Of a DNA stretch of 64,000 nucleotides, positions 17,517 through 64,000 are shown in pieces. The notes beneath the pieces were generated by a model that saw only the letters and a list, made by a program, of their open reading frames with translations, did not search any database and was not told the DNA's origin. The DNA comes from a virus (taxonomy: Duplodnaviria > Heunggongvirae > Uroviricota > Caudoviricetes > Crassvirales). The position numbers were made by a program, and so were the translations under genes. The DNA is taken from the IMG/VR virus record IMGVR_UViG_3300042691_023995, positions 1-64,000 of that record. One strand, given 5' to 3'. How positions within the stretch are numbered: the stretch's first letter is position 1; every line of letters starts with the position of its first letter.

Positions 17517-17530
17517 ACTTCTTACGTAAA

Positions 17531-17815: not shown

Positions 17816-17826
17816 ATCAATAACCC

Positions 17827-18663: not shown

Positions 18664-18673
18664 CTGACTAAAA

Positions 18674-18740
18674 AAGCCTTGTTTGTTGGTTTTCAAGGCT
18701 TCTCCCTGGGGTTTCAACCCTGGGGAGTTTTTATTTTATA
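18674..18740 (+). terminator. terminator candidate (two hairpins plus T-run)
   Basis: aagcctt / aaggctt stem (18674-18701), then ccctgggg tttcaa ccctgggg, then agtttttatttt. Confidence 0.45.
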
Positions 18741-18842
18741 ACAAAGTTAGTTAGTACCAATAATGAACTTCGTTAAAATAATTTGGAAAATATCAAAAAA
18801 CTTTCGTACCTTTAGGCCAATTTTAATCAAACAAAACCGTAA

Positions 18843-20093
18843 ATGCCTGAAAATCAATCTCTTCTGCAACAGCTGGAGCAGATGCTTCACTGGAAGAAAA
18901 GCAAAAAGTTTTATGCAGACAAACTAAACATTACAGAGAATGAAGTGGATGAGCTGTTGAAAGAATTAAAAGGTTCACAAGATGCTCAGAATGAGGCAGA
19001 GATAGCAAGCTATATTGGAGAACTGGAAGATGCAATTGTAAGGTTTTCCGAGGATATACAGAAGGGAACAGGTGAGGTGGTGTTCAACTCTAAGGAAGAA
19101 ATCAAGAGTTTGGACGAGTTGATTGAAAAGTGCAAGATTGATACAGACAAGTGGGAAATAACTAAATACGTACAAAACTACTGGGGAAATGCTGAACAGC
19201 CCCACTACCAAGTTAAAGCTTGGCTAGGAAAGAAGAAAGGTGAGCAGATATTCCAGGACAGCTTTGTTAGCTTCCTTGAGACATATGAACCTGTTTCTCC
19301 TGAAATAGTAGCTCCTAAGTTTGATTCATCCAAGAAAGAAGCATGTCTAATTATCAACAAGCAGGATTCCCATTTAAACAAGCTAGACGTAGGAGGAGAG
19401 AATGATATAGAACAGCGCTTCGGTGATTTCATCCAGAGGGTGGAAATAATCTTAAACCAAGCTGCTCTAGCTAACAATCTCACAGATATCAAATACATCA
19501 TTGGTTCTGATGAGTTCAACAGTGAGTTCACTAATACAACTACAAAGGGCACCCCACAACAAAACATCCTATCCTATCACGATTCTTTCCAAGCAATCTG
19601 TGATCATGAGGTGAGCGTGATAAACTTGCTTCTTCAAAGAGGTGGAGATGTGGAGGTGATATTTGTAGCTGGCAATCATGATGAATATGTAGGATGGCAT
19701 TTAGCCAGTTGGTTGAAAACCTACTTTAGAAACGAGGAGCGTGTGTTCTTTGACATCTCTCCAAGATATAGGAAGTACGTAAGTTATGGTAGCTCTGCAA
19801 TGATGTTTAATCACGGAGATGCTCTAAAGCCTGCTAAACTTGCGCACTTGTTCCCAATGGAGTTTAAACATGGATGGTCAGATCATGATAACTTCTACAT
19901 CTTTACAGGTGACAAACACCATGAGATGAGTTTAGATTTTAACGGTATTAAGTTCTATCAGCTTCCAGCTTTCTCCACAGCTAAAAGTAGCTGGGATGAT
20001 AAAAATGGATACACAATAAGCAAGGGAGAGGTGACAGGATTTTTGATAGACTACGATAACGGAATAACGAATATATTCAAACAGTATTTATAA
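18843..20093 (+). CDS. calcineurin-like metallophosphoesterase domain protein (C-terminal half), coiled-coil N-terminal half
   Basis: The compact motif series CDHEV - GGDVEV - VAGNHDE (about 19668-19686) and later FNHGD / GDKHHE fits the D-x-H ... GD ... GNH[DE] ... H ... H metallophosphoesterase signature. Confidence 0.5.
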   Translation: MPENQSLLQQLEQMLHWKKSKKFYADKLNITENEVDELLKELKGSQDAQNEAEIASYIGELEDAIVRFSEDIQKGTGEVVFNSKEEIKSLDELIEKCKIDTDKWEITKYVQNYWGNAEQPHYQVKAWLGKKKGEQIFQDSFVSFLETYEPVSPEIVAPKFDSSKKEACLIINKQDSHLNKLDVGGENDIEQRFGDFIQRVEIILNQAALANNLTDIKYIIGSDEFNSEFTNTTTKGTPQQNILSYHDSFQAICDHEVSVINLLLQRGGDVEVIFVAGNHDEYVGWHLASWLKTYFRNEERVFFDISPRYRKYVSYGSSAMMFNHGDALKPAKLAHLFPMEFKHGWSDHDNFYIFTGDKHHEMSLDFNGIKFYQLPAFSTAKSSWDDKNGYTISKGEVTGFLIDYDNGITNIFKQYL

Positions 20094-49900: not shown

Positions 49901-52001
49901 ACCTGCTGTGGACTTATACAACTACATCAGGAAAGTTAATGACGACTATAGATCTATTGGATATTTAGGAAGAGGAGAAGAAAGGGTGTTCTTACCATGG
50001 GTGAGAAAGAGTTTAGTGGAAACACTTATGTCTGGTGGCAGGGTGAATCTATTTGAACAGTTCCTAAAGTCTATATCTGTTGATCCAAATTCAGAAGTGG
50101 GTCTTGGTAAAATGGACCAGTACACTGGTAAACCAATTGACGAGATTCCTAAATACTTCACTACAGAGATTAAGGAGGACGTGAGTGAGGACTTATTCAG
50201 GAACCTGGCTCTATATAACACCATGGCTCTTAGATATAAGTATCTTTCAGAGATTGAAGAGCAGGCTTTGGGTTTGGTTGACATAGAGCAAAACAAAGGA
50301 TCAATTGCCACTTCTTGGTTCTCAAAGACCCAATACGACAAGAAAACTGGAAAGCTCATCACTGTTCCAAATAATAGCAAGAACACTGAGCTTATTGATA
50401 GCATGGTGAAGGGTATCATCTATGGACAGAAATATCTGAAGAATGATACGTTTGACCAGGCTCTTGGAAAGCTAACCAACGTTGGTGAAACGATAAACAA
50501 AAAACTTGGTGTGAAGATATTCCCAGAAGGATTAGAGGGAAGAATCATATCAATGAATAAATCTATTGATACACTGAACAAAACATTCAGTCTCCAAGCT
50601 ATGGGTCTGAACCCTCTGTCAGCCACTTCCAACTTGTTTGGTGGCACATCTCAGTCAATTATTAATAGTGGAAAATACTTTACAAAGGGAGACTATCTCG
50701 CTGCTGAAGCAAAGGTGAATGCTAAATGGCTCAACTTTATATCCACTGAGGAAAAGAAAAAGATTATCGGTGCCCTAGATTACTTCCTTCCTCTTACAGA
50801 AGACTTCTCTAGGGATATTGCTAATGAACTGTCTTTGGGTAAGTTGAGTCCTGATGGGATACAGAACTTCCTCATGAGCCTCATGAGAAACTCAGACAAG
50901 CACGTACAAACTGTTAACTTCCTTGCTTACATAGGTAACTCTATTGTAGTGGATGGACAGGTGGTAAATGCTAGGGAATACCTACGCACCACTCCTGAAT
51001 ACTCAGATATGTATTCTGGTACAACAGAGGAAAGACAAGAAAGAGAGAAACGCTTTGAGAAGGATGTTGAGAAGCTTGTAGAAGAAAAGGGAGTGATGAA
51101 GGTAGGACAAGTGGTTGATAATAAGTTTACTATACCTGGCGTAGATAGAAAATCTGAATCAGTGATTGAGCTCAGAAGGAAGATACAACAAGTGAGCAAG
51201 GATGCTCTTGGTAACATGACAGATGACGCTAGGAGAATGATTGACATGAACATATATGGAAATTCTTTCATGTTGTTCAAAAAATGGATTCCAAGACTGG
51301 TGGATGTTAGGTTTGGTGACCTGAAATACAACTCAGCTTCTGATGCTTATGAATGGGGTAGGATGCGTGTTGCGTTTAGCATGCTATCTCTTGACGTTAT
51401 TAAAAGCATAAAGAGGCTAAGAAACTCTCTTGTAGGTAACCAGGCTGGTGTGGATGATATGAGACAGATGTTTGAGAAGAAGAAGGAGGAATATGAGACA
51501 GAAACAGGTAAAGAGCTGGATATGACAGAAACCGAGTTTGTAGACTTGGTAAGAAGAAGTATACAGTCTCAGATGATTGATCTTATGTTCTACCTCACAC
51601 TGATAGGATTGTTCATGGCTCTGAAGGCAAATGCCCCAGATGAGGATGAGGATGAGGTGGTTAGAAACAGATATAGGTTTATCATGAGGGCTACAGACAA
51701 GCTTAAGGATGAGATTGCCTATTTCTACAATCCAGCCAACTTCTCAGCCCTTGTGGCAGGGGGTATATTCCCAGCCATCAGCCAGCTTGACAACTATGGG
51801 AAGTTCTTAAGCAACTTCATGAAGGAAATGTTTGGGGTGATTGTGGGTGACCAGGAGATGAGAGATGACGCTTTTGCTATAAAATACCTTATGAAATCCT
51901 TCCCAATTACAAATCAGCTGTCCCAATATCTCCCTGTGTTTGTTCCAGATGTAGCTAAAGACCTAGGAATTAAAATGCAGTCAAGATCAGGTATAAGGTA
52001 A
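46977..52001 (+). CDS. giant 1674-aa virion protein with a PD-(D/E)xK-like nuclease motif
   Basis: Its start overlaps the upstream stop. SEIKIYDPKTNKAGTIDLVAITKDGKVNIIDWKF (about 48400-48490) fits an E...hhD...hh(D/E)xK nuclease motif. Confidence 0.5.
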   Translation: MQIMSKCALDIRKDIVATVGRKLTEKGAIVQGDVGYFPNPSRAGAAINDINSEFKTSIVKESEKGSFLIEPSDDLINRYFEQYKRQEEGEAGQLQEEERLRGGYTEEQRGEFFQLEQTETSAASPATIAKIKDFLERIGVNVKEYDSIVVNGVKQDANAAALITQKLIQIVQGKEGVALPEEAMHFALEIIKQTNPALYNKLLKEINNYQFYKQILADYGAHPLYQTADGKPDIRKLKDEAIAKVLAETVINQNEGSVENPEHLAKVESWWSQIVEWLKNLFNIKSGFDQAALAVLSGEEIGTVEDIRAEEGAAYLQKTKQEDSIDRLKAMDSRLSIKDVEEEGKKEPRYFLDGVTKILKRVSDDVKDWYSRRFSNNEITKTEKDKAIDDIKRDKGTKGHSDQDYLIRGLNDGRGGILVDENGYLRQDPLDDSGYVPQMDPNDPERVIYETLKENLRERLASFGESTRFLSEIKIYDPKTNKAGTIDLVAITKDGKVNIIDWKFMDLNVDVYEDVPWYKIAAWKNQMDQYKTMLINAYGFKSQDFGQTRMIPIRTVYSGGTLLGIEIGAVDPKDITDAYLMPVGLEEEATGNEQIDALLKKLNAAYRTLSEKKALPSEKKEKAVQLNTLMSAIRQLQIRQNIEPLLEEAKLLNNYIQKVINRFETEWKDKERITPEEEAQRSAFLKEIRDAEKMLGTYTSLDVDLSDLFLSGGSENEKLETEVAKTVRVARALGDKLNRTKTAFVRDVVGRSEKVEDIIKEEKEIGIVARWFSDTASLQLNSAKVLFRKSNRALAKASMDSVDLARELQEIEGRYKKWATAKGLNKKDYFNIIKKKGKNELIDEFNPEFYKELKSRIDRKDPDLFNWVKENIDIKAYNDFLDEQIKKETEEINQKYKDRMEFDRATGNFYLSEEQERKKEWELNKMKKAYNTSSTTSAGWLQYNFIKRFPKVEKWQSQEWKELFKKDAAGNYVNKPAVDLYNYIRKVNDDYRSIGYLGRGEERVFLPWVRKSLVETLMSGGRVNLFEQFLKSISVDPNSEVGLGKMDQYTGKPIDEIPKYFTTEIKEDVSEDLFRNLALYNTMALRYKYLSEIEEQALGLVDIEQNKGSIATSWFSKTQYDKKTGKLITVPNNSKNTELIDSMVKGIIYGQKYLKNDTFDQALGKLTNVGETINKKLGVKIFPEGLEGRIISMNKSIDTLNKTFSLQAMGLNPLSATSNLFGGTSQSIINSGKYFTKGDYLAAEAKVNAKWLNFISTEEKKKIIGALDYFLPLTEDFSRDIANELSLGKLSPDGIQNFLMSLMRNSDKHVQTVNFLAYIGNSIVVDGQVVNAREYLRTTPEYSDMYSGTTEERQEREKRFEKDVEKLVEEKGVMKVGQVVDNKFTIPGVDRKSESVIELRRKIQQVSKDALGNMTDDARRMIDMNIYGNSFMLFKKWIPRLVDVRFGDLKYNSASDAYEWGRMRVAFSMLSLDVIKSIKRLRNSLVGNQAGVDDMRQMFEKKKEEYETETGKELDMTETEFVDLVRRSIQSQMIDLMFYLTLIGLFMALKANAPDEDEDEVVRNRYRFIMRATDKLKDEIAYFYNPANFSALVAGGIFPAISQLDNYGKFLSNFMKEMFGVIVGDQEMRDDAFAIKYLMKSFPITNQLSQYLPVFVPDVAKDLGIKMQSRSGIR

Positions 52002-52057
52002 CGCTATATTATATCGTTTATTTCCTCATAACTCATTGAAAATACATTAATAACAAC

Positions 52058-52065
52058 TAATTTTG
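52058..52065 (+). promoter_or_regulatory. -7 box taattttg (TAnnTTTG) upstream of the fibre operon
   Basis: Perfect consensus 5 nt before ATG 52071, implying a leaderless or very short-leader transcript. Confidence 0.3.
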
Positions 52066-52070
52066 CTTAT

Positions 52071-52466
52071 ATGCGAACTGCTGCAATTTGCCCAACATGT
52101 CCCTCATATGAGAACGCTTTGTGCGTGCTCTATAACGGAGAATATCTGACCAATATCGACGTAAACCCTTTAGACTCTCTAGAGGTAGCCCTTGGCAAGA
52201 TAAATGATAACCTCGTGCCTGTATCAGGAACAGGAGCTCCCACAGCTGGAGCTATCTATTTAGGACAGCTCTATGTAAGAACCACCGTGGCTCCAAACCT
52301 CTACTTCGCTAAGTCAACAGGTACAGGTGCTTTGGACTGGAGGATTCTCCTTTCTATTCCATATACAGGAGCCCCTGAATATGCTGATAACGCTGCTGCC
52401 ATAGCTGGTGGTTTAACAGATGGTCAAGTCTACCGTACAGGTGACGTATTGAAAATCGTACATTAA
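52071..52466 (+). CDS. small protein (131 aa) immediately upstream of the mega-fibre
   Basis: Complete ORF, Gly/Ala/Thr-rich with an N-terminal CPTCP...C motif. The fibre gene starts 9 nt after its stop. Confidence 0.45.
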   Translation: MRTAAICPTCPSYENALCVLYNGEYLTNIDVNPLDSLEVALGKINDNLVPVSGTGAPTAGAIYLGQLYVRTTVAPNLYFAKSTGTGALDWRILLSIPYTGAPEYADNAAAIAGGLTDGQVYRTGDVLKIVH

Positions 52467-52474
52467 TTTAGAAC

Positions 52475-55400
52475 ATGAACGTACTTCCTAATATACTAAG
52501 TTATGGAAGTTCAGGTTCATCTGGTACATCAGGTGAAGCTGTTCCCCATATACCAGACTTTTTAGAAAGCTTTCCCCAGCAGGTTGAGACACCTGAACCA
52601 ATCGATCCTACGGTTGGTAAGCCTTCCTTTTTGTCTAAACTGTATAATAGCCCACAGTATCAGACTCCTGATCCTGAGAATACGTCTATAAATTATAGTG
52701 AGAGTTTCTTCAATACACCTCTCCTTTCTAATATTGTTGGCTCTGAATCCTCTGAGGGTGATGGCCAATCATTCATAAATAAGCTCTTTGGTACAACCCA
52801 TTGTGAGCCTAAGTTCACATCCGCCCCTGTGGTATGTGCAGCTAACCCATGTCCTATCACATTGAACGCCACCTGTGTGTTCTATGAAGGACCCAATTTG
52901 ATCTATACAGGAATTAACACTAATGACAACCTCCAGACAGCTCTTGAGAAGATAGAGGCAGCTATTGCTGACGAACTTGCAGGTAGCTCTGGTACAAGCG
53001 GTACGTCAGGCACCTCAGGAACATCTGGCACATCAGGTAGCTCTGGAACCTCAGGAACTGACGGTAGTGGGGGAAGCAGTGGTACATCTGGCACTAGCGG
53101 TATAGACGGAACAAGTGGCACAGCAGGAACTAGTGGCACTTCTGGTACCACTGGTACATCTGGAAGTAGTGGAACTAGTGGAACAGATGGAAGTGGAGGT
53201 AGTAGTGGTACATCAGGGACTAGTGGAACCTCTGGGACATCTGGCACATCTGGTACTACAGGAACCTCTGGTACTACGGGTACAAGTGGCACCTCTGGTA
53301 CAGATGGTAGCGGTGGCACCTCAGGCACTTCTGGCACTTCTGGGACCAGTGGTACAACTGGCACCTCAGGGACAAGTGGAACTACAGGAACTAGTGGTAG
53401 TAGTGGAACTAGCGCTACATCAGGTACATCTGGGACATCAGGAACCTCTGGAAGTTCAGGTACAACTGGCACTAGTGGAACGTCTGGAACAACAGGTACC
53501 TCTGGTAGCTCAGGCACTACAGGCACGTCTGGTACCTCAGGTACTTCTGCAACAAGTGGTACGAGCGGCACCAGTGGTACAGATGGAACAGGAGGCACAA
53601 GCGGTACATCTGGTACATCAGCCACTAGTGGAACTAGTGGTACAACAGGAACCAGTGGGTCAAGTGGCACCAGTGGAACTTCAGGAACATCAGGAACTGA
53701 TGGTAGTGATGGTAGTTCTGGTACATCAGGAACATCTGGTACAGCTGGAACTAGTGCAACATCTGGTACTTCTGGCTCTTCTGGAACTGCAGGAACCTCT
53801 GCAACTAGCGGAACATCAGGCACTTCTGGTACGTCAGCCACTGATGGAACAGGGGGAACTAGTGGTACGTCAGGTACATCTGCCACCTCTGGATCATCAG
53901 GATCTTCTGGAACTGATGGAACAGGAGGTACATCTGGATCGAGTGGTACAAGTGCAACCAGTGGTTCATCTGGAACCTCTGGAACTTCTGGTAGTAGTGG
54001 AACAACAGGTACATCAGGCACTAGCGGTACAAGTGGTACGTCTGCTACAGACGGTACAGGAGGTACAAGTGGAACAAGTGGAACGTCAGGAAGTAGTGGA
54101 ACCACGGGTACATCTGGTACTACAGGTACGTCAGGCACAAGTGGAACCAGTGGTACAAATGGTTCACCTGGAACATCTGGTACATCTGCAACATCAGGAA
54201 CTAGTGGTTCAAGTGCTACATCAGGCACATCTGGAACTAGTGGAACAACTGGTACATCAGGAAGCTCTGGCTTGAGTGGAGATAGATATGCCACTACATC
54301 AAGCACAACATATACATTACAAGCAGCTGGTAATACAGGCACAATCACTGTAGGAACAGGACTAGCCTATACAGTGGCTCAGTCTATTATAATTGCCTAC
54401 AATGCAACAAATTACCAAGAGGCTGAGGTGACATCGTACAACTCTGGTACAGGTAGTTTATCATTCACCACCATTACACAGGTGGGAAGTGGAACATATA
54501 GTTCATGGTTTGTAAACCTAGATGGTGCAACAGGAGGAGATGGTTCTAACGGTACATCTGGTACAAGTGGAACATCTGCTACATCTGGCACTTCAGGCAC
54601 TACAGGAACTTCAGGCACTAGCGGTAGTTCAGGAACTACAGGTACATCTGGTACGTCTGGAACTCCTGGTACATCAGGAACCAGTGCTACTAGTGGAACC
54701 TCAGGAACTACAGGTACTTCGGGCACAACAGGTACTAGTGGCACATCAGGCTCATCAGGCACCTCAGGTACTGATGGATCTGGAGGAACAAGTGGAACCA
54801 GCGGCACCACAGGCACATCTGGCTCAAGTGGAAGTAGTGGATCTTCAGGAAGCAGTGGTTCTAGTGGAACATCTGCCACTTCTGGAACATCTGGTACCTC
54901 TGGCACAAATGGTAGTGCAGGCAGTAGTGGAAGTAGTGGGTCCTCAGGATCAAGCGGTAGTGCTGGAACGAGTGGTACAGCAGGTAGTCCTGGTACGTCT
55001 GGTACTAGTGGTAGTTCAGGCACATCTGGTACAGCAGGTACAACAGGAACTTCTGGAACCTCAGGTACAACAGGTACCTCTGGAACTAGTGGATTAACAG
55101 GAACTTCTGGTACATCAGGGGTGAATGGTACTAGTGGAACATCTGGAACCTCAGGGTCTAGTGGCACTGCTGGTAGCTCAGGTACAGCTGGTAGCTCAGG
55201 AACTAGTGGAACTGCAGGTACATCTGGAACCAATGGTTCTCCAGGTACCAGTGGTACAAGTGGGTCTAGCGGTTCCTCTGGATCATCAGGAACAACAGGC
55301 ACTTCAGGTTCTAGTGGTACAAGTGGAACATCAGGCTCTAGTGGTACGTCTGTAGCTGTAGCTGGTACACAGGAATACATTGTTAAGTTTACATCAGCCA

Positions 55401-58400
55401 CAACAATTGGAAACAGTGCCACATGTCAAAAGGCTAGTGGTGACCTCTGTGTCAACCTAGCAGGTGGTATTGGTGTGGATGTTGGTAAGGGTGGTGGATC
55501 TATTGCTACAAACACAGCAGTGGGTAACAGTGCTCTGTCAAGCAACACCACTGGTGCAGGGAACGTTGCTGTTGGATATTTTGCTCTAAGATGTAACACT
55601 ACAGCTAATAATAACATTGCTATTGGTAAAAATGCTTTATGTGCTAATGTATCATCAACTGATCTTACAGCAGTTGGAGATGCGGCACTTAAAGCAAACA
55701 CAGGTGCTTATAATTCAGCTTTTGGTGCTGCTGCTTTGTATAAAAATACAACAGGAACTAGTAATACAGCCATTGGTTTAAGAGCACTACAAGAAAATAT
55801 TACAGGCAGTAATAACACTGCTGTTGGTAGGTTAGCTCTATTCTGTAACACGGCATCAAATAATACAGCAGTAGGTACTTGTGCACTAAGAAGCAATACC
55901 ACTGGTATTTATAATACAGCTCTTGGAACAAATGCACTCAAATCTAACACTACAGGTGGAAGAAACGTTGGTATTGGTCTTAACGCTTTGATTAGTAACA
56001 TTACAGGTGCTCATAACATAGCTGTTGGATATGTTGCTTTAGGTTGTAATGTTTCAGGCAACAATAACATAGCTCTTGGTAGTTTAGCTTTACAATATAA
56101 TACAGCCTCCAACAACACTGCTATAGGATTTTTTGCATTAAGAGCTAATACTACAGGTAATTACAACACAGCTATTGGTAGAAATGCGTTAAAGGCTAAT
56201 ACTATAGGTAGATATATTGTGGCTTTGGGAGATAGTGCCTTATATTCAAACACAACAGGTGAACGAAATACCGCTGTAGGATATGGTACTTTAGTATGTA
56301 ATACTGTCGGAGCTAACAATACAGCTCTTGGATTCCAAGCACTCCGTCAAAATACGGCTTCCAATAACACAGCCGTTGGTTTCTGTGCTTTAAGAAGTAA
56401 CACCACTGGTGTATATAATACTGCATTAGGTTTTCAATCTTTAGCATCTAATACAACAGGTAATAGTAATACTGCAGTTGGTTTACAATCACTTTTATAC
56501 AATACTAGTGGTGTTCAAAATACAGCTGTAGGTAGAAGTACACTATTCTGTAATACTACAGGAAGTAATAACGTAGCTTTAGGTCAGGCTGCTCTTAGAC
56601 TTAACACTATAGGTAATAGAAACATAGCCATAGGTAGAGCTGCTATGGAAGCCAATACTACTGGTGCGGATAACGTAGCTGTAGGACATTATGCTCTTAT
56701 AGCTAATAGTGTTGGTACAAACAACGTAGCTATTGGTAGAAATGCTTTGTATTGTAATACCGCATCAAATAACACAGCAGTTGGATTTAGTGCTTTACGT
56801 AGTAATACTACTGGTACAAACAACGTAGCAGTAGGTTATTGTGCATTAAGAAATAATACAATTGGCACAGGAAATAATGCATTTGGACATGGTTCACTAA
56901 TCTGCAACACAACAGGAGCTAATAATGTTGCTGTTGGTACATCTTCTTTAGGTAGAAATACAATTGGTACAGACAATACTGGTATTGGTGTAAATACTCT
57001 TTTATATAATACAACAGGTATAAACAACACAGCTGTTGGTAGAAGTGCTCTTCAAACAAATACTACAGGAACTCTTAATACAGCAGTAGGTGTTAATTCA
57101 TTGTTAGTTAATACTGTAGGTTCAGTAAATGTTGCTGTTGGTGTAGGTGCTTTACAATCTAATATATCTGGTAATAACAATATCTCAATAGGTGTTAACT
57201 CCCTTGTAACAAATCAGGTAGGTAGCTCTAACGTAGCTGTGGGTAGAGATGCTTTGTTTTCTAATACAGCATCAAACAATACAGCTATAGGCCACTATTC
57301 TTTAAGATGTAATACTACTGGTACACCTAATACAGCTGTTGGTGCTAATGCTCTTGCTTCAAATACAATTGGAGATATTAATACAGCAATAGGTGTAAAT
57401 GCTTTAAATTCTAATACAACAGGAAGAGGAAACGTCGCTGTAGGTCACACAGCATCCAATTCAAATGTTGTTGGTTCTTATAACACTTCAGTAGGTGTAA
57501 GTGCATTAAGATGTAATACTGCATCAACCAATACTGCAATTGGATTTTATTCTATGAGAAATAACTCCACAGGAACTGTCAATACAGCTCTTGGAGTACA
57601 ATCATTAGCATATAATACAACTGGTGCTAGAAACGTAGCAATAGGACATCAGGCACTTTTCAGTAATGTAGTAGGAGTAAACAATACATCGGTAGGTTAT
57701 TTAGCTCTACTTTGCAGCACTGCATCAAACAACACAGCCGTAGGTTATTGCTCTCTTAGAAGCAATACTACTGGTACATCAAATGTTTCTGTAGGTGGGT
57801 TTTCAACAAGATTAAATACCACTGGTGTACACAACTCTGCTTTAGGATTTGCTGCTCTTGAAACAAATGTAACAGGAAATTATAATGTTGCCGTTGGATA
57901 TAGATCATTAAACCAAAACAAAGCTAGCAACAACACAGCAGTTGGATTTAATTCTTTAAGATTTAACACTACAGGTGCGTCAAACGTAGCTGTTGGTAAA
58001 AATGCGTTAGTAAGTAATACTACTGGTGCGCAGAATGTTGCAATGGGGTATAATGCCTTACTTGCAAACACCTCAGGTGGTAGCAATACTGCTTTGGGAA
58101 TGAAAGCATTGTATTCTAACACAGTATCAAACAATACAGCTGTTGGTCGATATGCAATGTGTGCTAATACAACAGGCACCCAAAACACAGGTCTTGGATT
58201 TGGTGCATTAAAAACTAACACTACAGGTAATACAAACACAGCTGTTGGATATAACGCTTTAACATACAACACAACAGGAGGTCTTAACACAGCAATGGGT
58301 GTGTTGGCTCTTGAAAAGAATACAACTGGGTGCTATAATATAGCAATAGGACCATCTGCTCTTAGAAACAATACTACAGGTGCTAGTAACGTTATTATAG

Positions 58401-61400
58401 GTAGAGATGCTGGGTATGCTAACACAATAGGATGTGCTAATACAGCAGTGGGTACTAACTCTTTAAAATGTAATACAACAGGAGGCAGAAACTCTGCATT
58501 AGGATCTGGTGCCTTAAATGCCAATACAACAGGATGCTTTAACACAGCTGTTGGTTTTAACTCTTTAACAGCAAACACAGTAGGAAGTTTAAATACAGCC
58601 CACGGTGTTCAGGCATTAAAATCTAACACCACAGGAAATAGAAATACAGCTTTAGGTTTAAATGCATTATATGCAAACAACGGTAGTTACAACGTAGCAG
58701 TTGGTACCTATTCAACACAAAATACAACAACAGGTTCTTGTAACGTAGCTGTGGGTTATGCAACGTTAGTTGCTAATACAACAGGTATTAGAAACGTAGC
58801 AATAGGTGTTTGTGCTTTAAGTGCAAACCAAGCATCTTCAATTGTTGCTGTGGGACCTAATGCCTTAAGATGTAATACAACAGGAGCAGGAAATACAGCA
58901 CTTGGTAATCAGGCATTGTTTGCTAACACAACAGGAGCAAATAATACTGCTGTTGGACAGAATGCAATGTTATGTAATACTACTGGAGGTGGTAACTCTG
59001 CACTTGGTGATTACGCATTAAGGAGTAACACAACTGGTAATAATAACGTAGCAATTGGTAGATTAGCAGCATCATGCAATACTGTTGGTTCTTATAACAT
59101 AGCAATAGGTAGAGACTCTTCACAAAATAATGTATCAGGAAGTAATAATATTGGTATTGGTTTCCAAGCATTACTACAGAACACAGCGTCAAATAATACT
59201 GCTCTAGGATATAGAGCATTAAGAAGCAACACTACTGGTGCTTATAATGTAGCAGTAGGTGCATGCTCATCAATGTACAACACCACAGGTGGTATAAACA
59301 GTGCATTTGGTTTTAGAGCAATGCTTAGAAACACCACTGGTATTCAAAATAATGCATTTGGTTTCTTAGCGCTTTGTAACAGCAATGGTAACTATAATAA
59401 CGCATTTGGTGTTTGTGCTCTAAGACAAAACACGACAGGTGCTCGTAATACAGCTGTGGGCCATAGATCCATGAACTATAACACAACAGGTAGTTATAAC
59501 ACAGCCATGGGTATGTGTTCTTTGTTGTGTAACACCACAGGTTCTAGTAATGTTGCTTTAGGATTTGCCTCATTACAATGTAACTTAACAGGTACAGACA
59601 ACGTTGCAGTTGGTGTTAATTCGTTATTTAAGAATTGTTCTAATAATAATGTTGCAGTTGGTGCTGCGGCTATGTTGGAAAACACAACTGGTACAAACAA
59701 TGTTGCAATTAGTACCAGTGCGTTGAGGAATAATACAACAGGAGTAAGCAATGTTGCTATAGGATTTTATTCTCAAAGAGTTAGTGTTGCTTCTAACAAC
59801 ACTTCAGTGGGCGTTAGTACACTGAGATGTAACACAACAGGTACTAATAACGTAGCACTTGGAATTTCAGCGTTGTATTCAAATACAACAGGTGTTTCAA
59901 ATGTTGCTATAGGATCTGTTTCTTTGGCAGGCAATACAATAGGTCAACACAACGTAAGCATTGGTAGAGTAGCTCTTAGAAATAATAGTACAGGTAATAG
60001 TAACGTCGCTCTTGGTAGCTATGCTCTTTATGCAAATGTTACAGGTTGCAATAACATAGCCATGGGTTATTTGTCTTTAGCTTGTAATACTGCTTCTAAC
60101 AATACAGCAGTGGGATATGCATCATTAAGATTTAATACCTCTGGTACAGACAATGCAGCATTAGGTCAATGTGCATTGATTTTCAATACTACGGGTGCAC
60201 AAAATACAGCTGTTGGTAAACAAGCTATGATGTACAACAACGTAGGTTGTAGAAACACAGCAGTGGGTACTTTTGCATTGTTTAGAACAAGGTGTAGCAA
60301 TCAAGTGGCTGTAGGATATGGTGCTTTAAGATATAACATAACAGGTGTTGGTAATACAGCAGTGGGTTATACCGCAGGAAGAAATAACGTATGTGGAAAC
60401 AATAATACATCATTAGGAAATTCAGCATTAACTTCTAATACAGCATCATATAATACAGGTATAGGAGCTCAGGCATTAACAAGTAATACAACAGGTGGTA
60501 ACAATACAGCTGTTGGTATGCAATCAATGTTGCTTAATACAACAGGGTATCGAAACACAGCATTAGGTGTAAGAGCATTATGTGCTAATACTACAGCAAA
60601 CAGTAATACTGCACTAGGGTATAGTGCACTAAGAAAAAATATAACAGGCGCAGATAACACCGCTGTAGGAGGATATGCTCTTGCATGTAACACATCAGGA
60701 CGTCAAAACGTAGCTATTGGTAAGGATTCATCTAGATACAATCAAACAGGTATTTATAATACATCTCTAGGTGTAGCCTCTTTACAATCAAATACAGCAG
60801 GTAGTCGTAACACTGCTATTGGTTATCAAGCTTTATTATTGAATACAGCTTCTAACAATACAGCAGTGGGATATCGTTCCTTGAGGAATAATACTACAGG
60901 CTATTGTAATACGGCTGTAGGTAGATTTGCTTTATTTGCTAATACAACAGGCTTTAGAAACAATGCTTTTGGATCAAGAGCACTCTATTCCAATACTACA
61001 GGTGTTAGAAATGTGGCAATGGGTGATAGAGCTCTGGCAGCAAATACAATAGGTTTAAGTAATAGCTCCTTTGGAACTTATGCTCTCTATACTAACACAA
61101 CAGGATCTCTTAACGTAGCTGTAGGAAGCCAAGCATTATTTTATAATCTAGTTGGCTCAGCTAACACTGCTGTTGGAGCTGATGCGCTATTGTGTAACAA
61201 AGCATCAGGTAACACAGCCGTTGGTTTTTGTGCCTTAAGAACTAATACTACTGGTGCTCAGAATGTAGCTGTGGGGTACGGAGCATTGAGATTAAATACC
61301 ACAGGTCAGTATAACACTGCTTTAGGATATCACGCTTTACGTAATAGCACAGGATCACAGAACAATGTTGGTTTAGGAATGCATGCAGGATGTGCTATTA

Positions 61401-64000
61401 CTACAGGTAGTAATAATATTGCAATTGGTAGGGACGCTTTATCTACTGGCCAAACCATGAACAACAACGTTGCTGTAGGTAGAGATGCGCTACTTTTAAA
61501 TACAGCAGACCACAATACCGCAGTAGGATTCTGCGCACTTAGAAGTAATACGACAGGTAATAGAAATACCGCTGTTGGTAGATATACTTTAAGATCTAAT
61601 ACAACTGGTAAATACAACGTAGGTGTAGGTGTTAATGCACTAGAATCAAATGCAGTGGGAGATAATAATACTGCTGTTGGTATGTTTGCACTTACAGCTA
61701 ACACAGCATCAAACAACACAGCGGTTGGTTTCTGTTCTCTTAGGAGTAATACTACAGGAGGTAATAATACAGCTGTTGGTAGATACTCACTAAGAACAAA
61801 CACTGTAGGCTACAATAATACTGCTCTAGGTGTTAATTCACTACAATGTAATGTATCAGGTAGATGGAATACAGCAGTTGGTTTTGTATCATTAAATTTA
61901 AACACTACAGGTATAGACAATACAGCATTAGGTGGAAACTCACTATATGCTAATACAACAGGAAACAGTAATACAGCGCTAGGTACCAACGCTTTGTGTG
62001 CTAATACAACAGGTGGATTCAATGTTGCTGTTGGACAGTCTGCATTAAGAGTAAATACTGCATCTAATAATACGGCTGTAGGTAGTTGTGCCTTAAGATA
62101 TAATACCACTGGTACACAAAACGTAGCTCTTGGATTTGAAGCTCTACTATTAAATGTAGGTGCTAATAACAATACAGCTGTAGGAGCAGTGGCTATGAGA
62201 AGAAATACCAGCGGTGCTTACAATACAGCTATGGGTAGGGCTGCTCTTTATGCTAACACAATAGGAACTAGTAACGTTGCCATTGGATATAGATCATTAT
62301 TTTCTAATACCACTGGAGATCATAATGTTGGTGTTGGAACTAACTCATTAAGATATAATACTACAGGAGGTTGTAACGTAGCATTAGGTAGTACAGCATT
62401 GAGAAATAATACAACTGGTATTCGTAATACGGCTGTAGGTTGTGGTGCTATGTATGGAAACACAGGAGGACAAGCAAATGTAGCTGTTGGATTTAATGCT
62501 AATCAAGCTAACAACACAGGTGGAAGTAACACAGCTATTGGATTTAATTCACTGGCTAATAATAAAGCAGGTAGCAATACAGCTGTAGGTGCTAGTTCAC
62601 TTTATAATAACACTACTGGATTTAATAACACAGCTGTAGGACTTAATGCTTTAGTATCAAACACAACGGGATATAATAACGCTGCACTTGGTGTACAATC
62701 ACTTCAGTGCAATACAACAGGAAGACGTAATGTTGCGGTGGGTCCAAATGCACTATTCTGTAATACAACAGGACAAAATAACACAGGTTTAGGTTATAGA
62801 TCTGGACAAAATAACCAAACTGGTACAGGAAACGTATCTGTTGGATATTATTCATTAACAGCCAATACAGCTTCAAATAATACAGCATTAGGTGCAAGTG
62901 CGTTAAGAGCCAACACCACTGGTGCTAATAACACAGCTTTAGGTTATGTTGCGTTAAGGAATAATACTACAGGAGCATCTAACGTAGCAATTGGATTTAG
63001 AGCACTTTGTGGCAATACAACAGGTGTAGCTAATATATCCATAGGTGTTCAATCCATGCTATATAATGCAGGTGGCACTGCAAACATAGCTGTAGGATCA
63101 CAAGCATTGTATAAGAACAATGGTTCTAATAACACTGCGGTTGGTCATGAAGCAATGAAATGTAACACAACAGGTAATAGTAATACTGCTGTTGGATCTA
63201 ACGCACTGTTTAAGAATACCACTGGTGTTTACAACACAGCGCTTGGAGGTAATGCTTTACAATGTAACACAACTGGTTGTAGGAACGTTGCTCTAGGTTT
63301 AAATACAATGAGATTTAACCTAACAGGATACCAAAATATAGGAATAGGTGTAAATGCTCTGTTGAACAGCTCATCAAACTCTTGTGACATTGGTATAGGT
63401 GATGGTGCTTTGTGTTCTAATACATATGGTGGTGGAAACGTAGGTGTTGGTATGTTGGCACTGAGCAGCCACAACTGGTACATCAAATCTCACAACGTTG
63501 CTATTGGTACCAGGGCATTGAAAGCAAACACCATTGGTAGCAATAATACAGCTGTAGGAGGATATGCTCTATATAAGAACACTAATGCAGGTGAGAATGC
63601 TGCGTTTGGTTACTTGTCTATGGCGTGCAACACCACAGGTAGTAGCAATGCAGGATTGGGAACCCAAACACTAAAATCCAATACTACAGGTGTTTGTAAT
63701 ACAGCTGTAGGTACAAGAAGCTTATATCAAAACACCATAGGTACTTGCAATACAGCTGTAGGAACATGGGCCCTCTTTAACAACACTACAGGAAGATGTC
63801 ACGTGGCTGTTGGATTTATAGCCAACTGTGCTATAAATGCGAACATCACTAACACTATTGCTGTAGGTACATGTTCTGCTACATCTGCTACAACAGGTCA
63901 CACTGTTTGGGGTAATAGTGGTAACAACGTTTGTAACTGCGTATATGCAGCTTGGTCAAACGTATCTGACTGTCGTGATAAGACCAATGTTGAAACTCTT
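52475..64000 (+). CDS. giant repeat fibre protein, at least 3842 aa and 3'-truncated by the window edge: N-terminal domain, two collagen-like GXY blocks, about 160 x 17-aa beta-solenoid-type repeats and the start of a C-terminal S74-like chaperone domain
   Basis: ATG 52475 is preceded by an in-frame tag at 52469-71. Hand translation of the frame with codon starts at positions equal to 2 mod 3 is open to base 64000, spot-checked at 52.5-53.0, 54.2-54.5, 59.0 and 63.9 kb. Absent from the ORF track only because there is no stop in the window; the track shows its antisense and off-frame shadows instead. Confidence 0.85.
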   Translation, partial: MNVLPNILSYGSSGSSGTSGEAVPHIPDFLESFPQQVETPEPIDPTVGKPSFLSKLYNSPQYQTPDPENTSINYSESFFNTPLLSNIVGSESSEGDGQSFINKLFGTTHCEPKFTSAPVVCAANPCPITLNATCVFYEGPNLIYTGINTNDNLQTALEKIEAAIADELAGSSGTSGTSGTSGTSGTSGSSGTSGTDGSGGSSGTSGTSGIDGTSGTAGTSGTSGTTGTSGSSGTSGTDGSGGSSGTSGTSGTSGTSGTSGTTGTSGTTGTSGTSGTDGSGGTSGTSGTSGTSGTTGTSGTSGTTGTSGSSGTSATSGTSGTSGTSGSSGTTGTSGTSGTTGTSGSSGTTGTSGTSGTSATSGTSGTSGTDGTGGTSGTSGTSATSGTSGTTGTSGSSGTSGTSGTSGTDGSDGSSGTSGTSGTAGTSATSGTSGSSGTAGTSATSGTSGTSGTSATDGTGGTSGTSGTSATSGSSGSSGTDGTGGTSGSSGTSATSGSSGTSGTSGSSGTTGTSGTSGTSGTSATDGTGGTSGTSGTSGSSGTTGTSGTTGTSGTSGTSGTNGSPGTSGTSATSGTSGSSATSGTSGTSGTTGTSGSSGLSGDRYATTSSTTYTLQAAGNTGTITVGTGLAYTVAQSIIIAYNATNYQEAEVTSYNSGTGSLSFTTITQVGSGTYSSWFVNLDGATGGDGSNGTSGTSGTSATSGTSGTTGTSGTSGSSGTTGTSGTSGTPGTSGTSATSGTSGTTGTSGTTGTSGTSGSSGTSGTDGSGGTSGTSGTTGTSGSSGSSGSSGSSGSSGTSATSGTSGTSGTNGSAGSSGSSGSSGSSGSAGTSGTAGSPGTSGTSGSSGTSGTAGTTGTSGTSGTTGTSGTSGLTGTSGTSGVNGTSGTSGTSGSSGTAGSSGTAGSSGTSGTAGTSGTNGSPGTSGTSGSSGSSGSSGTTGTSGSSGTSGTSGSSGTSVAVAGTQEYIVKFTSATTIGNSATCQKASGDLCVNLAGGIGVDVGKGGGSIATNTAVGNSALSSNTTGAGNVAVGYFALRCNTTANNNIAIGKNALCANVSSTDLTAVGDAALKANTGAYNSAFGAAALYKNTTGTSNTAIGLRALQENITGSNNTAVGRLALFCNTASNNTAVGTCALRSNTTGIYNTALGTNALKSNTTGGRNVGIGLNALISNITGAHNIAVGYVALGCNVSGNNNIALGSLALQYNTASNNTAIGFFALRANTTGNYNTAIGRNALKANTIGRYIVALGDSALYSNTTGERNTAVGYGTLVCNTVGANNTALGFQALRQNTASNNTAVGFCALRSNTTGVYNTALGFQSLASNTTGNSNTAVGLQSLLYNTSGVQNTAVGRSTLFCNTTGSNNVALGQAALRLNTIGNRNIAIGRAAMEANTTGADNVAVGHYALIANSVGTNNVAIGRNALYCNTASNNTAVGFSALRSNTTGTNNVAVGYCALRNNTIGTGNNAFGHGSLICNTTGANNVAVGTSSLGRNTIGTDNTGIGVNTLLYNTTGINNTAVGRSALQTNTTGTLNTAVGVNSLLVNTVGSVNVAVGVGALQSNISGNNNISIGVNSLVTNQVGSSNVAVGRDALFSNTASNNTAIGHYSLRCNTTGTPNTAVGANALASNTIGDINTAIGVNALNSNTTGRGNVAVGHTASNSNVVGSYNTSVGVSALRCNTASTNTAIGFYSMRNNSTGTVNTALGVQSLAYNTTGARNVAIGHQALFSNVVGVNNTSVGYLALLCSTASNNTAVGYCSLRSNTTGTSNVSVGGFSTRLNTTGVHNSALGFAALETNVTGNYNVAVGYRSLNQNKASNNTAVGFNSLRFNTTGASNVAVGKNALVSNTTGAQNVAMGYNALLANTSGGSNTALGMKALYSNTVSNNTAVGRYAMCANTTGTQNTGLGFGALKTNTTGNTNTAVGYNALTYNTTGGLNTAMGVLALEKNTTGCYNIAIGPSALRNNTTGASNVIIGRDAGYANTIGCANTAVGTNSLKCNTTGGRNSALGSGALNANTTGCFNTAVGFNSLTANTVGSLNTAHGVQALKSNTTGNRNTALGLNALYANNGSYNVAVGTYSTQNTTTGSCNVAVGYATLVANTTGIRNVAIGVCALSANQASSIVAVGPNALRCNTTGAGNTALGNQALFANTTGANNTAVGQNAMLCNTTGGGNSALGDYALRSNTTGNNNVAIGRLAASCNTVGSYNIAIGRDSSQNNVSGSNNIGIGFQALLQNTASNNTALGYRALRSNTTGAYNVAVGACSSMYNTTGGINSAFGFRAMLRNTTGIQNNAFGFLALCNSNGNYNNAFGVCALRQNTTGARNTAVGHRSMNYNTTGSYNTAMGMCSLLCNTTGSSNVALGFASLQCNLTGTDNVAVGVNSLFKNCSNNNVAVGAAAMLENTTGTNNVAISTSALRNNTTGVSNVAIGFYSQRVSVASNNTSVGVSTLRCNTTGTNNVALGISALYSNTTGVSNVAIGSVSLAGNTIGQHNVSIGRVALRNNSTGNSNVALGSYALYANVTGCNNIAMGYLSLACNTASNNTAVGYASLRFNTSGTDNAALGQCALIFNTTGAQNTAVGKQAMMYNNVGCRNTAVGTFALFRTRCSNQVAVGYGALRYNITGVGNTAVGYTAGRNNVCGNNNTSLGNSALTSNTASYNTGIGAQALTSNTTGGNNTAVGMQSMLLNTTGYRNTALGVRALCANTTANSNTALGYSALRKNITGADNTAVGGYALACNTSGRQNVAIGKDSSRYNQTGIYNTSLGVASLQSNTAGSRNTAIGYQALLLNTASNNTAVGYRSLRNNTTGYCNTAVGRFALFANTTGFRNNAFGSRALYSNTTGVRNVAMGDRALAANTIGLSNSSFGTYALYTNTTGSLNVAVGSQALFYNLVGSANTAVGADALLCNKASGNTAVGFCALRTNTTGAQNVAVGYGALRLNTTGQYNTALGYHALRNSTGSQNNVGLGMHAGCAITTGSNNIAIGRDALSTGQTMNNNVAVGRDALLLNTADHNTAVGFCALRSNTTGNRNTAVGRYTLRSNTTGKYNVGVGVNALESNAVGDNNTAVGMFALTANTASNNTAVGFCSLRSNTTGGNNTAVGRYSLRTNTVGYNNTALGVNSLQCNVSGRWNTAVGFVSLNLNTTGIDNTALGGNSLYANTTGNSNTALGTNALCANTTGGFNVAVGQSALRVNTASNNTAVGSCALRYNTTGTQNVALGFEALLLNVGANNNTAVGAVAMRRNTSGAYNTAMGRAALYANTIGTSNVAIGYRSLFSNTTGDHNVGVGTNSLRYNTTGGCNVALGSTALRNNTTGIRNTAVGCGAMYGNTGGQANVAVGFNANQANNTGGSNTAIGFNSLANNKAGSNTAVGASSLYNNTTGFNNTAVGLNALVSNTTGYNNAALGVQSLQCNTTGRRNVAVGPNALFCNTTGQNNTGLGYRSGQNNQTGTGNVSVGYYSLTANTASNNTALGASALRANTTGANNTALGYVALRNNTTGASNVAIGFRALCGNTTGVANISIGVQSMLYNAGGTANIAVGSQALYKNNGSNNTAVGHEAMKCNTTGNSNTAVGSNALFKNTTGVYNTALGGNALQCNTTGCRNVALGLNTMRFNLTGYQNIGIGVNALLNSSSNSCDIGIGDGALCSNTYGGGNVGVGMLALSSHNWYIKSHNVAIGTRALKANTIGSNNTAVGGYALYKNTNAGENAAFGYLSMACNTTGSSNAGLGTQTLKSNTTGVCNTAVGTRSLYQNTIGTCNTAVGTWALFNNTTGRCHVAVGFIANCAINANITNTIAVGTCSATSATTGHTVWGNSGNNVCNCVYAAWSNVSDCRDKTNVETL
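52982..54280 (+). repeat. collagen-like block 1: about 144 Gly-X-Y triplets, mainly GTS/GSS/GTT/GTD, with rare Gly-to-Ala breaks
   Basis: Continuous ggt-aca/agc triplets with Gly every third codon. Recurring GTDGSGG punctuation. Confidence 0.85.
54524..55351 (+). repeat. collagen-like block 2: about 90 Gly-X-Y triplets including a GSSGSSGSS run
   Basis: Same periodicity, separated from block 1 by a roughly 85-aa non-collagenous insert (DRYATTSSTTYTLQAAGNTGTITVGTGLAYTV...SWFVNLD). Confidence 0.85.
55511..63900 (+). repeat. coding tandem array of about 160 diverged 51-bp / 17-aa units, consensus N-[TV]-A-[VLI]-G-x-x-[AS]-L-x-x-N-T-[TA]-G-x-x (YadA-head / Hep_Hag-like)
   Basis: Units are diverged at the nucleotide level but conserved at the protein level. 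A marker unit NTASNNTAVGxxALRxNTTG recurs about every 10 units (about 16 times). Confidence 0.85.

Follow-up and report, generated by a model that had tools for sequence, protein, structure and literature searches.

A 165-unit array of 17-residue repeats in the probable distal shaft of a giant collagen-like fibre from an uncultured Crassvirales phage

Known β-roll, S74 and collagen-like proteins, and the fibre gene

The closest structurally described systems are the heads of trimeric autotransporters such as YadA (1P9H), BpaC (7O23), UspA1 (3PR7) and BoaA (3S6L). In the solved β-roll heads a layer has 14 residues (15 in UspA1) with one invariant glycine and rises by 4.8 Å, and while BpaC has 42 layers, the largest structure solved comprises 20 (PMC9543794). 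A second set of systems are the fibres and spikes with a Peptidase_S74 chaperone, e.g., the K1F endosialidase, the long tail fibre of phage S16 (6F45) and MYRF (7DC3). Those that have been studied structurally carry a triple β-helix or other folds in the shaft. The 17-residue repeat consensus analysed here is found, together with an S74 end, in Pelagibacter phage HTVC111P (gp52), Roseobacter phages CRP-1/7, Prochlorococcus phage P-SSM2 and N4-like phages, where the proteins are annotated as tail fibres, as well as in SPO1-like phages, with 35–45% identity over the 423-aa query for all these phage proteins, and in Bacteroidota 'tail fiber domain-containing proteins'; these phage and Bacteroidota proteins have 450–1,100 residues and roughly 20–35 units, usually without collagen. 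Collagen-like tail fibres of phages and prophages and the bacterial Scl/Lcl adhesins, in turn, share with the protein described below long GXY tracts that adjoin a trimerising C-terminal part.

The fibre gene lies in a stretch of 64,000 nucleotides (hereafter the window), which covers positions 1 to 64,000 of IMGVR_UViG_3300042691_023995, a Crassvirales virus. It occupies positions 52475–64000 on the + strand, starting at the ATG at 52475, in a single frame (that of 52472) that is still open when the window end cuts it, after 3,842 codons; since the product is called as 3,951 residues on near-identical JGI/ENA contigs (e.g., Ga0315903_10000522 and k141_376314), the gene is expected to end ~330 bp past the window. 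These contigs are 99.98–99.995% identical to the window and gap-free as compared up to position 62466, and in three independent assemblies the array is identical without gaps over the fetched extent (to window positions 61722–62466). A megablast of positions 1–20000 against GenBank phages gave no match, and for the window end no exact match was present in viral or metagenome collections. The protein is built, in this order, of an N-terminal anchor, two proline-poor collagen-like tracts, the array, which makes up most of the 3,951 residues, and a C-terminal Peptidase_S74 chaperone. The original prediction had overlooked this context, namely the collagen tracts 5' and the S74 chaperone 3' of the array.

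With autotransporter heads the array shares a conserved Gly-containing strand-turn motif per layer and a long tandem arrangement of layers, and it is Asn/Thr-rich, like the hydrophilic core of BpaC (PMC9543794). It differs from them in its 17 (or 16) residues per layer, and the 17-residue register originally described is real and unlike the 14- or 15-residue layers of the solved heads; its 165 layers also outnumber the 42 of BpaC and the 20 of the largest structure solved (PMC9543794). The fibre has none of the neck, stalk, β-barrel anchor or type Vc secretion of autotransporters and ends instead in a phage S74 chaperone. Compared with the S74 fibres and spikes, it has the same SDxRxK start and S74 consensus, as seen in the family alignment and in the related locus L020, but a 17-residue β-roll as the shaft ahead of the chaperone. 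In contrast to the shorter phage and Bacteroidota proteins, it combines 165 uninterrupted units with ~710 collagen-like residues. The fibre follows a common and known design and is unusually long for it. Its repeats are known from many phage tail fibres, and its array serves as a gauge of how far one β-roll layer can be iterated: 165 times without interruption, over a predicted ~80 nm, about four times as many layers as the 42 in BpaC.

Modules of the fibre and its probable role

The N-terminal region (aa 1–169; 52475–52981, all modules being on the + strand) contains a Cys-rich module, VVCAANPCPITLNATCVFYEGPNLIYTGINTNDNLQTALEKIEAAIADE (about 52829–52975), which is conserved at the start of fibre ORFs in 50 viral contigs at 42–98% identity. 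The region had no match in Pfam, PHROG or GenBank phages, and the 17 database matches of the anchor are all fragmentary; it is presumed to be the virion-attachment domain. It is followed by collagen-like tract 1 (aa 170–604; 52982–54286), where X is mostly Thr and Y mostly Ser, and tract 2 (aa 684–959; 54524–55351), ~710 collagen-like residues overall, which match Pfam Collagen (PF01391) in 8 stretches at E = 1.8e-79 and NCBIfam SclB at 1e-77, below the SclB cut-off. Unlike in other collagen-like proteins, the triplets are almost solely G-T-S or G-S-S: in runs of at least 5, the two tracts have 210 GXY triplets with Thr at X in 155, Ser at Y in 151 and only 4 prolines, and there are several Gly-to-Ala breaks. 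A collagen triple helix commonly owes its stability to Pro/Hyp or charge pairs, and its stability is uncertain in tracts nearly devoid of proline. Gene callers at times assign the collagen-like region to the opposite strand, which truncates the fibre gene.

Between the tracts lies a non-collagen insert, or 'knob' (~aa 600–690; 54272–54544), that runs from LSGDRYATTSS to VNLDGATGGDG, matches nothing in Pfam or PHROG, and recurs between collagen tracts three times in the related locus L024 and a single time in both L007 and L010. The linker from collagen to the array (VAVAGTQEYIVKFTSATTIGNSATCQKASGDLCVNLAGGIGVDVGKGGGSIAT; 55352–55510) is conserved in L024 and L020, immediately 5' of their own 17-residue arrays. 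Downstream of the array, a C-terminal shaft cap (TCSATSATTGHTVWGNSGNNVCNCVYAAWSNV; 63905–63964) aligns with L020 and precedes the predicted cleavage site, after which the first 12 residues of Peptidase_S74, SDCRDKTNVETL (63965–64000), are still in the window and ~109 more lie beyond it. The S74 assignment is made via homologues: the corresponding L020 C-terminus starts SDCRDKTNIQTL and matches PF13884 (7.4e-12) from exactly that Ser, the family alignment has the consensus SDxRxK...GFIAQEV...LVKAxQEL, the family profile matches the solved S74 domains of 6f45 (1.7e-13) and MYRF 7dc3 (2.6e-11), and most of the 120 homologues listed carry PF13884. The chaperone would join the three chains and is predicted to be released by autocleavage behind Ser3831 (S|DCRDK).

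Taken together with the fold described below, these modules suggest that the array probably forms the distal shaft of a giant fibre on the virion of an uncultured phage. This fibre would be a homotrimer and most likely acts as a tail fibre or in host adhesion. We infer the trimer from the fold class and from the collagen and S74 modules, two obligate-trimer modules that flank the array. Upstream on the same strand lie genes for the large terminase (4e-86), portal (4e-93) and major head protein (4e-31) and for tail and virion structural proteins, and the fibre gene closes the tail/virion module. The last 423 residues of the fibre match PHROG 23837, 6002 and 4636 (E 9e-64, 3e-56 and 2e-49; range 1e-64 to 2e-49), annotated as 'tail spike protein' and 'virion structural protein'. 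The N-terminal half would form a long, proline-poor collagen-like stalk held to the virion by the small Cys-rich module. At the rise of collagen, roughly 0.29 nm per residue, the ~710 collagen-like residues would add ~200 nm to the length of the array. For the array itself, 165 layers of 4.8 Å each (PMC9543794) predict a rod of ~79 nm. The six variable positions of each layer may then create an extended, almost uncharged face, rich in Asn and Thr, that could bind multivalently to a polymer on the host surface.

A fibre of ~280 nm would be long for a receptor probe, and the same protein with the same fold could instead be attached to the capsid, as a head fibre or a general 'whisker' by which the virion adheres to particles, mucus or sheath material, and would then not be the main tail fibre for receptor binding. 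The crAss-type phage crAss001 has trimeric and dimeric head fibres besides its tail fibres (PMC10172136), the terminase of the window is distantly related to the crAss-type lineage, and in Pfam, PHROG or GenBank phages the N-terminal anchor has no match with a known location. We nevertheless consider a head fibre rather unlikely, given that the proteins of isolated phages with the same repeat and S74 end carry tail-fibre or spike annotations, that the gene closes the tail/virion module, and that the distal array is exchanged among close relatives, the usual signature of host-range determinants.

This exchange is directly visible in the related locus L007, which shares 98% of the N-terminus and is 95% identical in DNA up to window position 54024, but carries an array with a 15-residue period that matches LbR_Ice_bind (6e-12). 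Arrays of the 15-residue type are found in L007, L010, L011, L017, L023, L047 and L038, and those of the 17-residue type in L020 (about 50 units) and L024 (at least 109–111). The former (Pfam LbR_Ice_bind, the grass antifreeze β roll) take the same place in the fibre architecture, with an S74 end and a similar array size (about 2,000–2,350 aa), but have the consensus xSxVGGGxxNTASGx and go undetected by the 17-residue PSSM. The distal array is thus exchanged as a module between close relatives, as expected of a host-range determinant, which supports the reading as a tail or host-adhesion fibre. In this uncultured phage group, with collagen-plus-β-roll fibres of 3,000–4,000 residues, the swapping of array types offers a natural system for host-range exchange in very long fibres.

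More widely, the 17-residue repeat family comprises 49,453 clusters at E ≤ 1e-3, and in a library of 1.84 billion proteins the 150 best representatives include no contiguous array longer than ~64 units. Collagen and this roll are also combined in Caudovirales proteins in BFVD, where models with the 17-residue roll include proteins named 'Collagen triple helix repeat' and 'Intramolecular chaperone auto-processing domain'. The literature on β-roll tail fibres and giant collagen-like fibres yielded nothing specific. A conserved linkage between fibre and glycosyltransferase genes was considered and not established, as HTVC111P gp53 is weakly GT9-like and the ORF after the L020 fibre, which has no Pfam match and is present in only 2 fetched loci, is unrelated to gp53.

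Fold of the repeat unit

The array unit has the consensus N[TV]A[VLI]GxxALxxNTTGxx. Across 165 units the strongest columns are G5 (164), N1 (159) and N12 (154), followed by A3 (140), L9 (136), G15 (129), T13 (123) and T14 (94), with T/V2, V/L/I4 and A/S8 completing the pattern; each unit therefore has two conserved glycines, G5 and G15, and the six most variable columns are 6, 7, 10, 11, 16 and 17. The array contains 160 N-x-S/T sites. In a monomer model, which folds confidently on its own, the units form a left-handed parallel β-roll, and in structure comparisons autotransporter heads score clearly above LbH-type folds, with 23–27% identity. Each unit is predicted to make one layer of a YadA/BpaC-type roll, ~165 layers in all, with a short strand at T2-A3-V4, a second at about x11-N12, turns at Gly5 and Gly15, and Asn1/Asn12 and Thr13/14 as invariant or nearly invariant positions.

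The resemblance to YadA and Hep_Hag repeats claimed at the outset holds for the left-handed β-roll of the model but did not extend to the sequence families: Pfam YadA_head and Hep_Hag had no match at E ≤ 1 in four fibre segments, nor at E ≤ 0.01 in five homologues, and an NCBIfam scan of the array likewise brought up no relevant family. Common descent with autotransporter heads, as against convergence, is for this reason unproven. A PDB search with a single sequence gave no match, a profile search matched the S74 part only, and we found no solved structure of the 17-residue form. Many homologues are assigned to PF26696, a family outside the Pfam set scanned here. With no solved structure and no match in that set, solving the trimer for just a few layers would provide an annotation for tens of thousands of proteins, the repeats being found in many phage tail fibres and Bacteroidota surface proteins.

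That the monomer folds confidently alone, and that homologues weakly match LbH_EIF2B and GlmU, would also fit an independent monomeric β-solenoid (a hexapeptide-type left-handed β-helix, or an antifreeze- or curli-like form) with an enzymatic or an ice- or polysaccharide-binding role. This is very improbable for an array to which autotransporter heads score clearly higher, which sits between two trimer-forming modules and for which Pfam and NCBIfam scans found no catalytic domain or motif. The stacked core of aromatic and Cys residues that had been proposed is not supported: Phe, Tyr and Cys fall in the six most variable columns (8–30% occupancy where commonest), strings of the GFCALR/GYCALR type number 6 in the array, and Cys is unpaired between layers. 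A disulfide ladder was likewise rejected, as no pair of Cys columns co-occurs more often than expected, whether in the same layer or in neighbouring ones.

Anatomy and age of the array

The array (55511–63904; aa 1013–3810) is made of ~165 head-to-tail units, in line with the ~160 tandem repeats first counted. By regular expression there are 137 units of 17, 27 of 16 and one of 19 residues, and by the spacing of PSSM matches 135 of 17, 27 of 16 and one of 18; the PSSM chain has 164–166 contiguous units, against 2 isolated matches in the shuffle. At a lag of 17 residues, protein identity is 0.39, versus 0.10 ± 0.006 in shuffles, and the expected 51-bp periodicity is present in the DNA, with an identity of 0.50 versus 0.31 at other in-frame lags.

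A regular higher-order repeat was rejected. The strongest secondary autocorrelation lags are 84, 101 and 67 residues, followed by 168, while the signal at multiples of 17 falls to background by 170, both because the 16-residue units displace the register. With the units aligned, identity is flat over unit lags (0.43–0.46; shuffles 0.449 ± 0.006), without a peak at lag 10, self-BLASTN offsets are scattered and codon identity is equal at every lag; neither the 10-unit (510-bp) period nor growth by blocks of that size, both put forward originally, is supported by these data or by the modal short-unit spacing of 4–5 units. The marker NTASNNTAVG[FY]xALRSNTTG, said to recur ~16 times at ~170 residues, occurs twice in its strict form and 15 times in a loose one, 84–421 residues apart (mean ~167).

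All 27 of the 16-residue units are spaced 3–11 units apart (mean 5.7, modal 4–5), more evenly than by chance (P about 5e-5), and similar under-dispersion is seen in L024 (P 0.004) and in the unrelated homologue P0147 (P 0.008). In the window, a short layer comes after a degenerate layer and before a particularly canonical one. The even spacing in all three arrays would fit the idea that the 17-residue unit represents a structurally uncharacterised class of trimeric β-roll in which 16-residue 'skip' layers are stutters that reset twist or register and allow very long rods, possibly far beyond any known adhesin head in length. Against this, one homologue has 62 layers and no short unit, and an old duplication of 5-unit blocks could yield the same spacing; we regard the skip layers as a possible but doubtful reading.

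Pairwise DNA identity between units averages 53%, with a maximum of 85%, and Tandem Repeats Finder, with copies less than ~70% alike, reported no 51-bp array. Codon identity at shared residues is 0.44–0.47 at every lag, where independent codon draws give 0.448; synonymous sites are thus saturated, and the array is old and kept by selection on the protein, as originally proposed, rather than a recent slippage product. The array is under purifying selection. Recent slippage, a hypervariable contingency locus or an assembly artefact can practically be dismissed: although the fibre gene is split by a 178-bp deletion (window positions 58255–58432) in one assembly, L004, and array lengths differ widely among related phages, synonymous sites are saturated between units at every lag, the best internal DNA matches reach just 64–80% identity at scattered offsets, and three other assemblies are gap-free at 99.98–99.995% identity. 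Near the distal end of the array, three degenerate units, including the lone 19-residue one (NVGVGMLALSSHNWYIKSH; 63335–63493), form the lowest-confidence stretch of the array model (pLDDT 58–68 at model residues 210–260).

Repeat unit and domain order of the fibre protein

The array spans window positions 55511-63904 on the plus strand, where regular-expression segmentation delimits 165 units, 137 of them 17 residues long, 27 of 16 residues and one of 19. A position-specific matrix made from the units recovers 164-166 contiguous copies, compared with two isolated matches in shuffled residues, at spacings that correspond to 135 units of 17 residues, 27 of 16 and one of 18. The consensus is N-[T/V]-A-[V/L/I]-G-x-x-[A/S]-L-x-x-N-T-T-G-x-x, with N1, G5, L9 and N12 near-invariant and columns 6, 7, 10, 11, 16 and 17 variable. 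In autocorrelation, protein identity is 0.39 at lag 17 (shuffles, 0.10 ± 0.006), and the proposed 51-bp periodicity appears as a DNA identity of 0.50, where the remaining in-frame lags give 0.31. Segmentation, matrix chain and lag signals together confirm the coordinates, unit length and unit count of the original prediction, and the repeat is real and statistically overwhelming. Asn makes up 16% of the array, Thr, Gly and Ala 13% each, and Lys, Asp and Glu together 2.2%; 160 N-x-S/T sites occur within it, mostly at N12-T13-T14.

The array belongs to one open plus-strand frame of 3,843 codons, running from just past a stop at 52469-52471 to the window end, with ATG 52475 as start codon. Near-identical contigs carry a 3,951-aa call of this gene, so about 109 residues lie outside the window. 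An N-terminal region (aa 1-169), closed by a Cys-rich module with conserved counterparts on 50 viral contigs, is followed by collagen-like G-X-Y tracts (aa 170-604 and 684-959; Pfam Collagen, 1.8e-79) separated by a small insert (about aa 600-690), a neck (aa 960-1012), the translated array (aa 1013-3810 from the ATG, window 55511 to about 63904), a short cap and SDCRDKTNVETL at 63965-64000, all on the plus strand. The collagen-like tracts hold 210 triplets, counted over runs of five or more, with Thr almost always at X, Ser almost always at Y and only four prolines. At the C-terminal side, SDCRDKTNIQTL, the counterpart of SDCRDKTNVETL in the viral locus L020, opens a Peptidase_S74 domain (PF13884, 7.4e-12) in a complete ORF; the S74 consensus closes the alignment of 80 homologues, and a profile from this alignment matches solved S74 domains (6f45, 1.7e-13; MYRF, 2.6e-11).

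Several smaller features accompany this architecture. The N-terminus begins MNVLPNIL… and continues with a low-complexity, Pro-rich stretch of ~115 aa before the Cys-rich module; because this module directly follows MNV/MDV in most relatives, window 52475-52828 represents an N-terminal insertion. An ~85-aa module (LSGDR[YF]ATTSS…VNLDGATGGDG) breaks the collagen tracts once here (54272-54544) and occurs three times in the ORF of the viral locus L024 (aa about 385-470, 705-790 and 1175-1260), in both without a family match. The collagen-like tracts (52001-56000) have a G+C content of 46-47%, the array (56001-64000) 36-39% and the rest of the window about 39-41%; the contrast between tracts and array arises from the codons that each repeat type uses. 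Opposite the collagen-like tracts lie spurious long minus-strand ORFs (52903-54348, 481 aa; 54412-55422, 336 aa); in two public assemblies (L004 and L005) the gene caller took these and put the fibre start only near the array, so that the 3,951-aa gene is truncated there, while other assemblies call it whole.

Predicted fold and proposed fibre

The final 423 visible residues were modelled with AlphaFold2 from an 81-sequence alignment; mean pLDDT is 85.3, with most layers above 90, two 16-aa layers among them, and a dip across three degenerate units near 63335-63493. In each modelled layer, positions 2-4 form a strand of three residues, and a second, short strand lies around positions 11-12. 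In the BpaC-type beta-roll, a layer takes 14 residues (15 in UspA1) and rises 4.8 Å, and BpaC itself has 42 layers, 20 of them in the largest solved structure, around a core unusually rich in Thr and Asn (PMC9543794). The array is similarly Asn/Thr-rich, but its 17-residue layer differs in length from those of the BpaC and UspA1 heads, and the HMM comparison suggested at the outset gave no match of the units to Pfam YadA_head or Hep_Hag. The model thus supports the proposed YadA/Hep_Hag-like roll at the level of structure, not of family membership. A stacked aromatic/Cys core, also put forward originally, is unlikely: these residues occupy variable columns, at 8-30% where commonest, and the Cys positions are unpaired. 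No experimental structure of the 17-residue form was found.

A first search returned at least 8,000 candidate homologues, mostly Bacteroidota 'tail fiber domain-containing proteins' of 450-740 aa with PF13884, and when all 1.84 billion representatives were scanned, 49,453 clusters matched at E <= 1e-3. The array is a new, extreme example of a known, very common phage fibre module: the repeat family is present in annotated tail fibres of isolated phages, such as gp52 of Pelagibacter phage HTVC111P, which like the window fibre combines 17-aa units with an S74 end, and it is matched by PHROG 'tail spike' and 'virion structural' families and by many BFVD models, some with collagen too. We consider a homotrimeric virion fibre most likely; a head fibre or general adhesion whisker is a clearly less probable alternative.

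Proteins of the S74 family nucleate trimer folding from a C-terminal domain that is then cleaved. In the homotrimeric fibre, this domain would act likewise and be cut off after Ser3831, and three 165-layer beta-rolls side by side would form a rod of ~79 nm (165 x 4.8 Å). The collagen-like half may add a thin stalk of up to about 200 nm more, if triple-helical, the N-terminal module would dock on the virion, and an exposed binding surface could be formed by the variable positions, where F/Y, R, C, N and S are frequent. That the modelled roll is instead a monomeric solenoid with another role, in a protein with an S74 end, seems very improbable.

Age and higher-order organisation of the array

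Conserved residues use the full range of synonymous codons (Leu9: TTA 61, CTT 24, TTG 20, CTA 19, CTG 7, CTC 5), and in pairwise DNA comparison units are on average 53% identical. Where units share an amino acid, codon identity is 0.44-0.47 at all lags 1-80, as expected from independent draws (0.448), which implies that silent sites are saturated while the protein consensus is retained. Judged by its codons, this is an old array kept by purifying selection, as originally proposed, and no trace of its growth path is left. A recent or artefactual array is scarcely conceivable, assembly artefact being ruled out by contigs of three independent JGI/ENA assemblies that are gap-free and 99.98-99.995% identical to the window over the fetched part of the array, up to window 61722-62466.

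One assembly, L004 (JGI 3300008266), lacks 178 bp inside the array (window 58255-58432; L004 15360), which shifts the frame and splits the fibre gene into calls of 937 aa and 739 aa. Its sister L005 is continuous across the first part of the interval and ends at window 58417; the gap reflects either faulty assembly of the repeats or a rare variant with a broken gene.

The array had further been described as built of 10-unit, 510-bp blocks, with a marker (NTASNNTAVG[FY]xALRSNTTG) recurring about 16 times at ~170 aa. Such blocks are not borne out: identity between aligned units is flat across unit lags (0.43-0.46; shuffles, 0.449 ± 0.006), with no peak at lag 10, and self-BLASTN of the array yields only 64-80% identical stretches at scattered offsets. 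The marker occurs twice in its strict form; a loose form occurs 15 times, and its mean spacing of about 167 aa explains the impression of 'about 170 aa', but individual spacings range from 84 to 421 aa. Secondary autocorrelation is strongest at lags of 84, 101 and 67 aa, followed by 168 aa, and the signal at exact multiples of 17 has decayed to background by 170 aa, because the 27 units one residue short (…NTAS-N for …NTTGxx) shift the register (84 = 4 x 17 + 16).

The array does contain a weaker organisation: a loose super-repeat that varies in length, most often 4-5 units. Successive short units are separated by 3-11 units (mean 5.65, SD 2.2, minimum 3); over 20,000 random placements, the observed SD was reached in a fraction of 5e-5 and the minimum spacing never. 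The most canonical unit is the one following a short unit (z = +5.3; NTAVG[FY]xALRxNTTG) and the most degenerate the one preceding it (z = -2.3). Short-unit spacing is likewise under-dispersed in L024 (P 0.004) and in the unrelated homologue P0147 (P 0.008), and the homologue P0122 has 62 units, none of them short.

Relatives, module exchange and phage context

Scored with the same matrix, the best 150 representatives reach at most ~64 units in one contiguous array (P0132) and at most 118 in total, in separate blocks (P0121). With the same N-terminal anchor as the window fibre, L020, whose 2,927-aa ORF is complete, carries about 50 units and L024 at least 109-111 up to the locus end. No uninterrupted array longer than the 165 units of the window was seen in this comparison, which is no census: the window's own protein is missing from the library matches, so that other giants may be missing too.

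The closest relative, locus L007, matches the fibre at 98% identity in the N-terminus and at 95% in DNA up to window 54024; beyond the shared part it continues with an unrelated array of 15-aa period (xSxVGGGxxNTASGx; Pfam LbR_Ice_bind, 6e-12) and its own S74 end. Between window 54024-55511 and L007 11541-12570, identity falls from 95% to 80% to none within the second collagen tract and neck. This interval marks a recombination boundary at which the 17-aa and 15-aa arrays were exchanged. Arrays of 15-aa period and similar size occur on six further contigs; giant collagen-plus-beta-roll fibres are thus typical of this phage group, and their distal array is exchangeable. Downstream of the homologous fibre genes, HTVC111P has a weakly GT9-like glycosyltransferase gene (L057 4659-5540) and L020 an ORF of 220 aa, unrelated to it, that contains a DSD motif and lacks a Pfam match (18806-19468); no conserved downstream linkage was found between the two.

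The window covers a phage structural module whose genes, all on the plus strand, encode the large terminase, the portal, the major head protein, tail proteins and a number of very large virion proteins. Its terminase is 40% identical to that of Leptolyngbya phage Lbo-JY46, also the only match of the major head protein (26%), 33% to those of Cellulophaga phages phi17:2 and phi4:1, and 27-28% to those of crAss-type phages; window 1-20000 has no near-identical GenBank phage. ARAGORN finds no tRNA or tmRNA genes in the whole window. Directly upstream of the fibre gene lie two more giant ORFs, 35053-46989 (+, 3,978 aa) and 46977-52001 (+, 1,674 aa), without Pfam or PHROG match, and an ORF of a DNA-repair exonuclease family (PHROG 704, 1.7e-48) is located at 18843-20093 (+), amid the head and tail structural genes.
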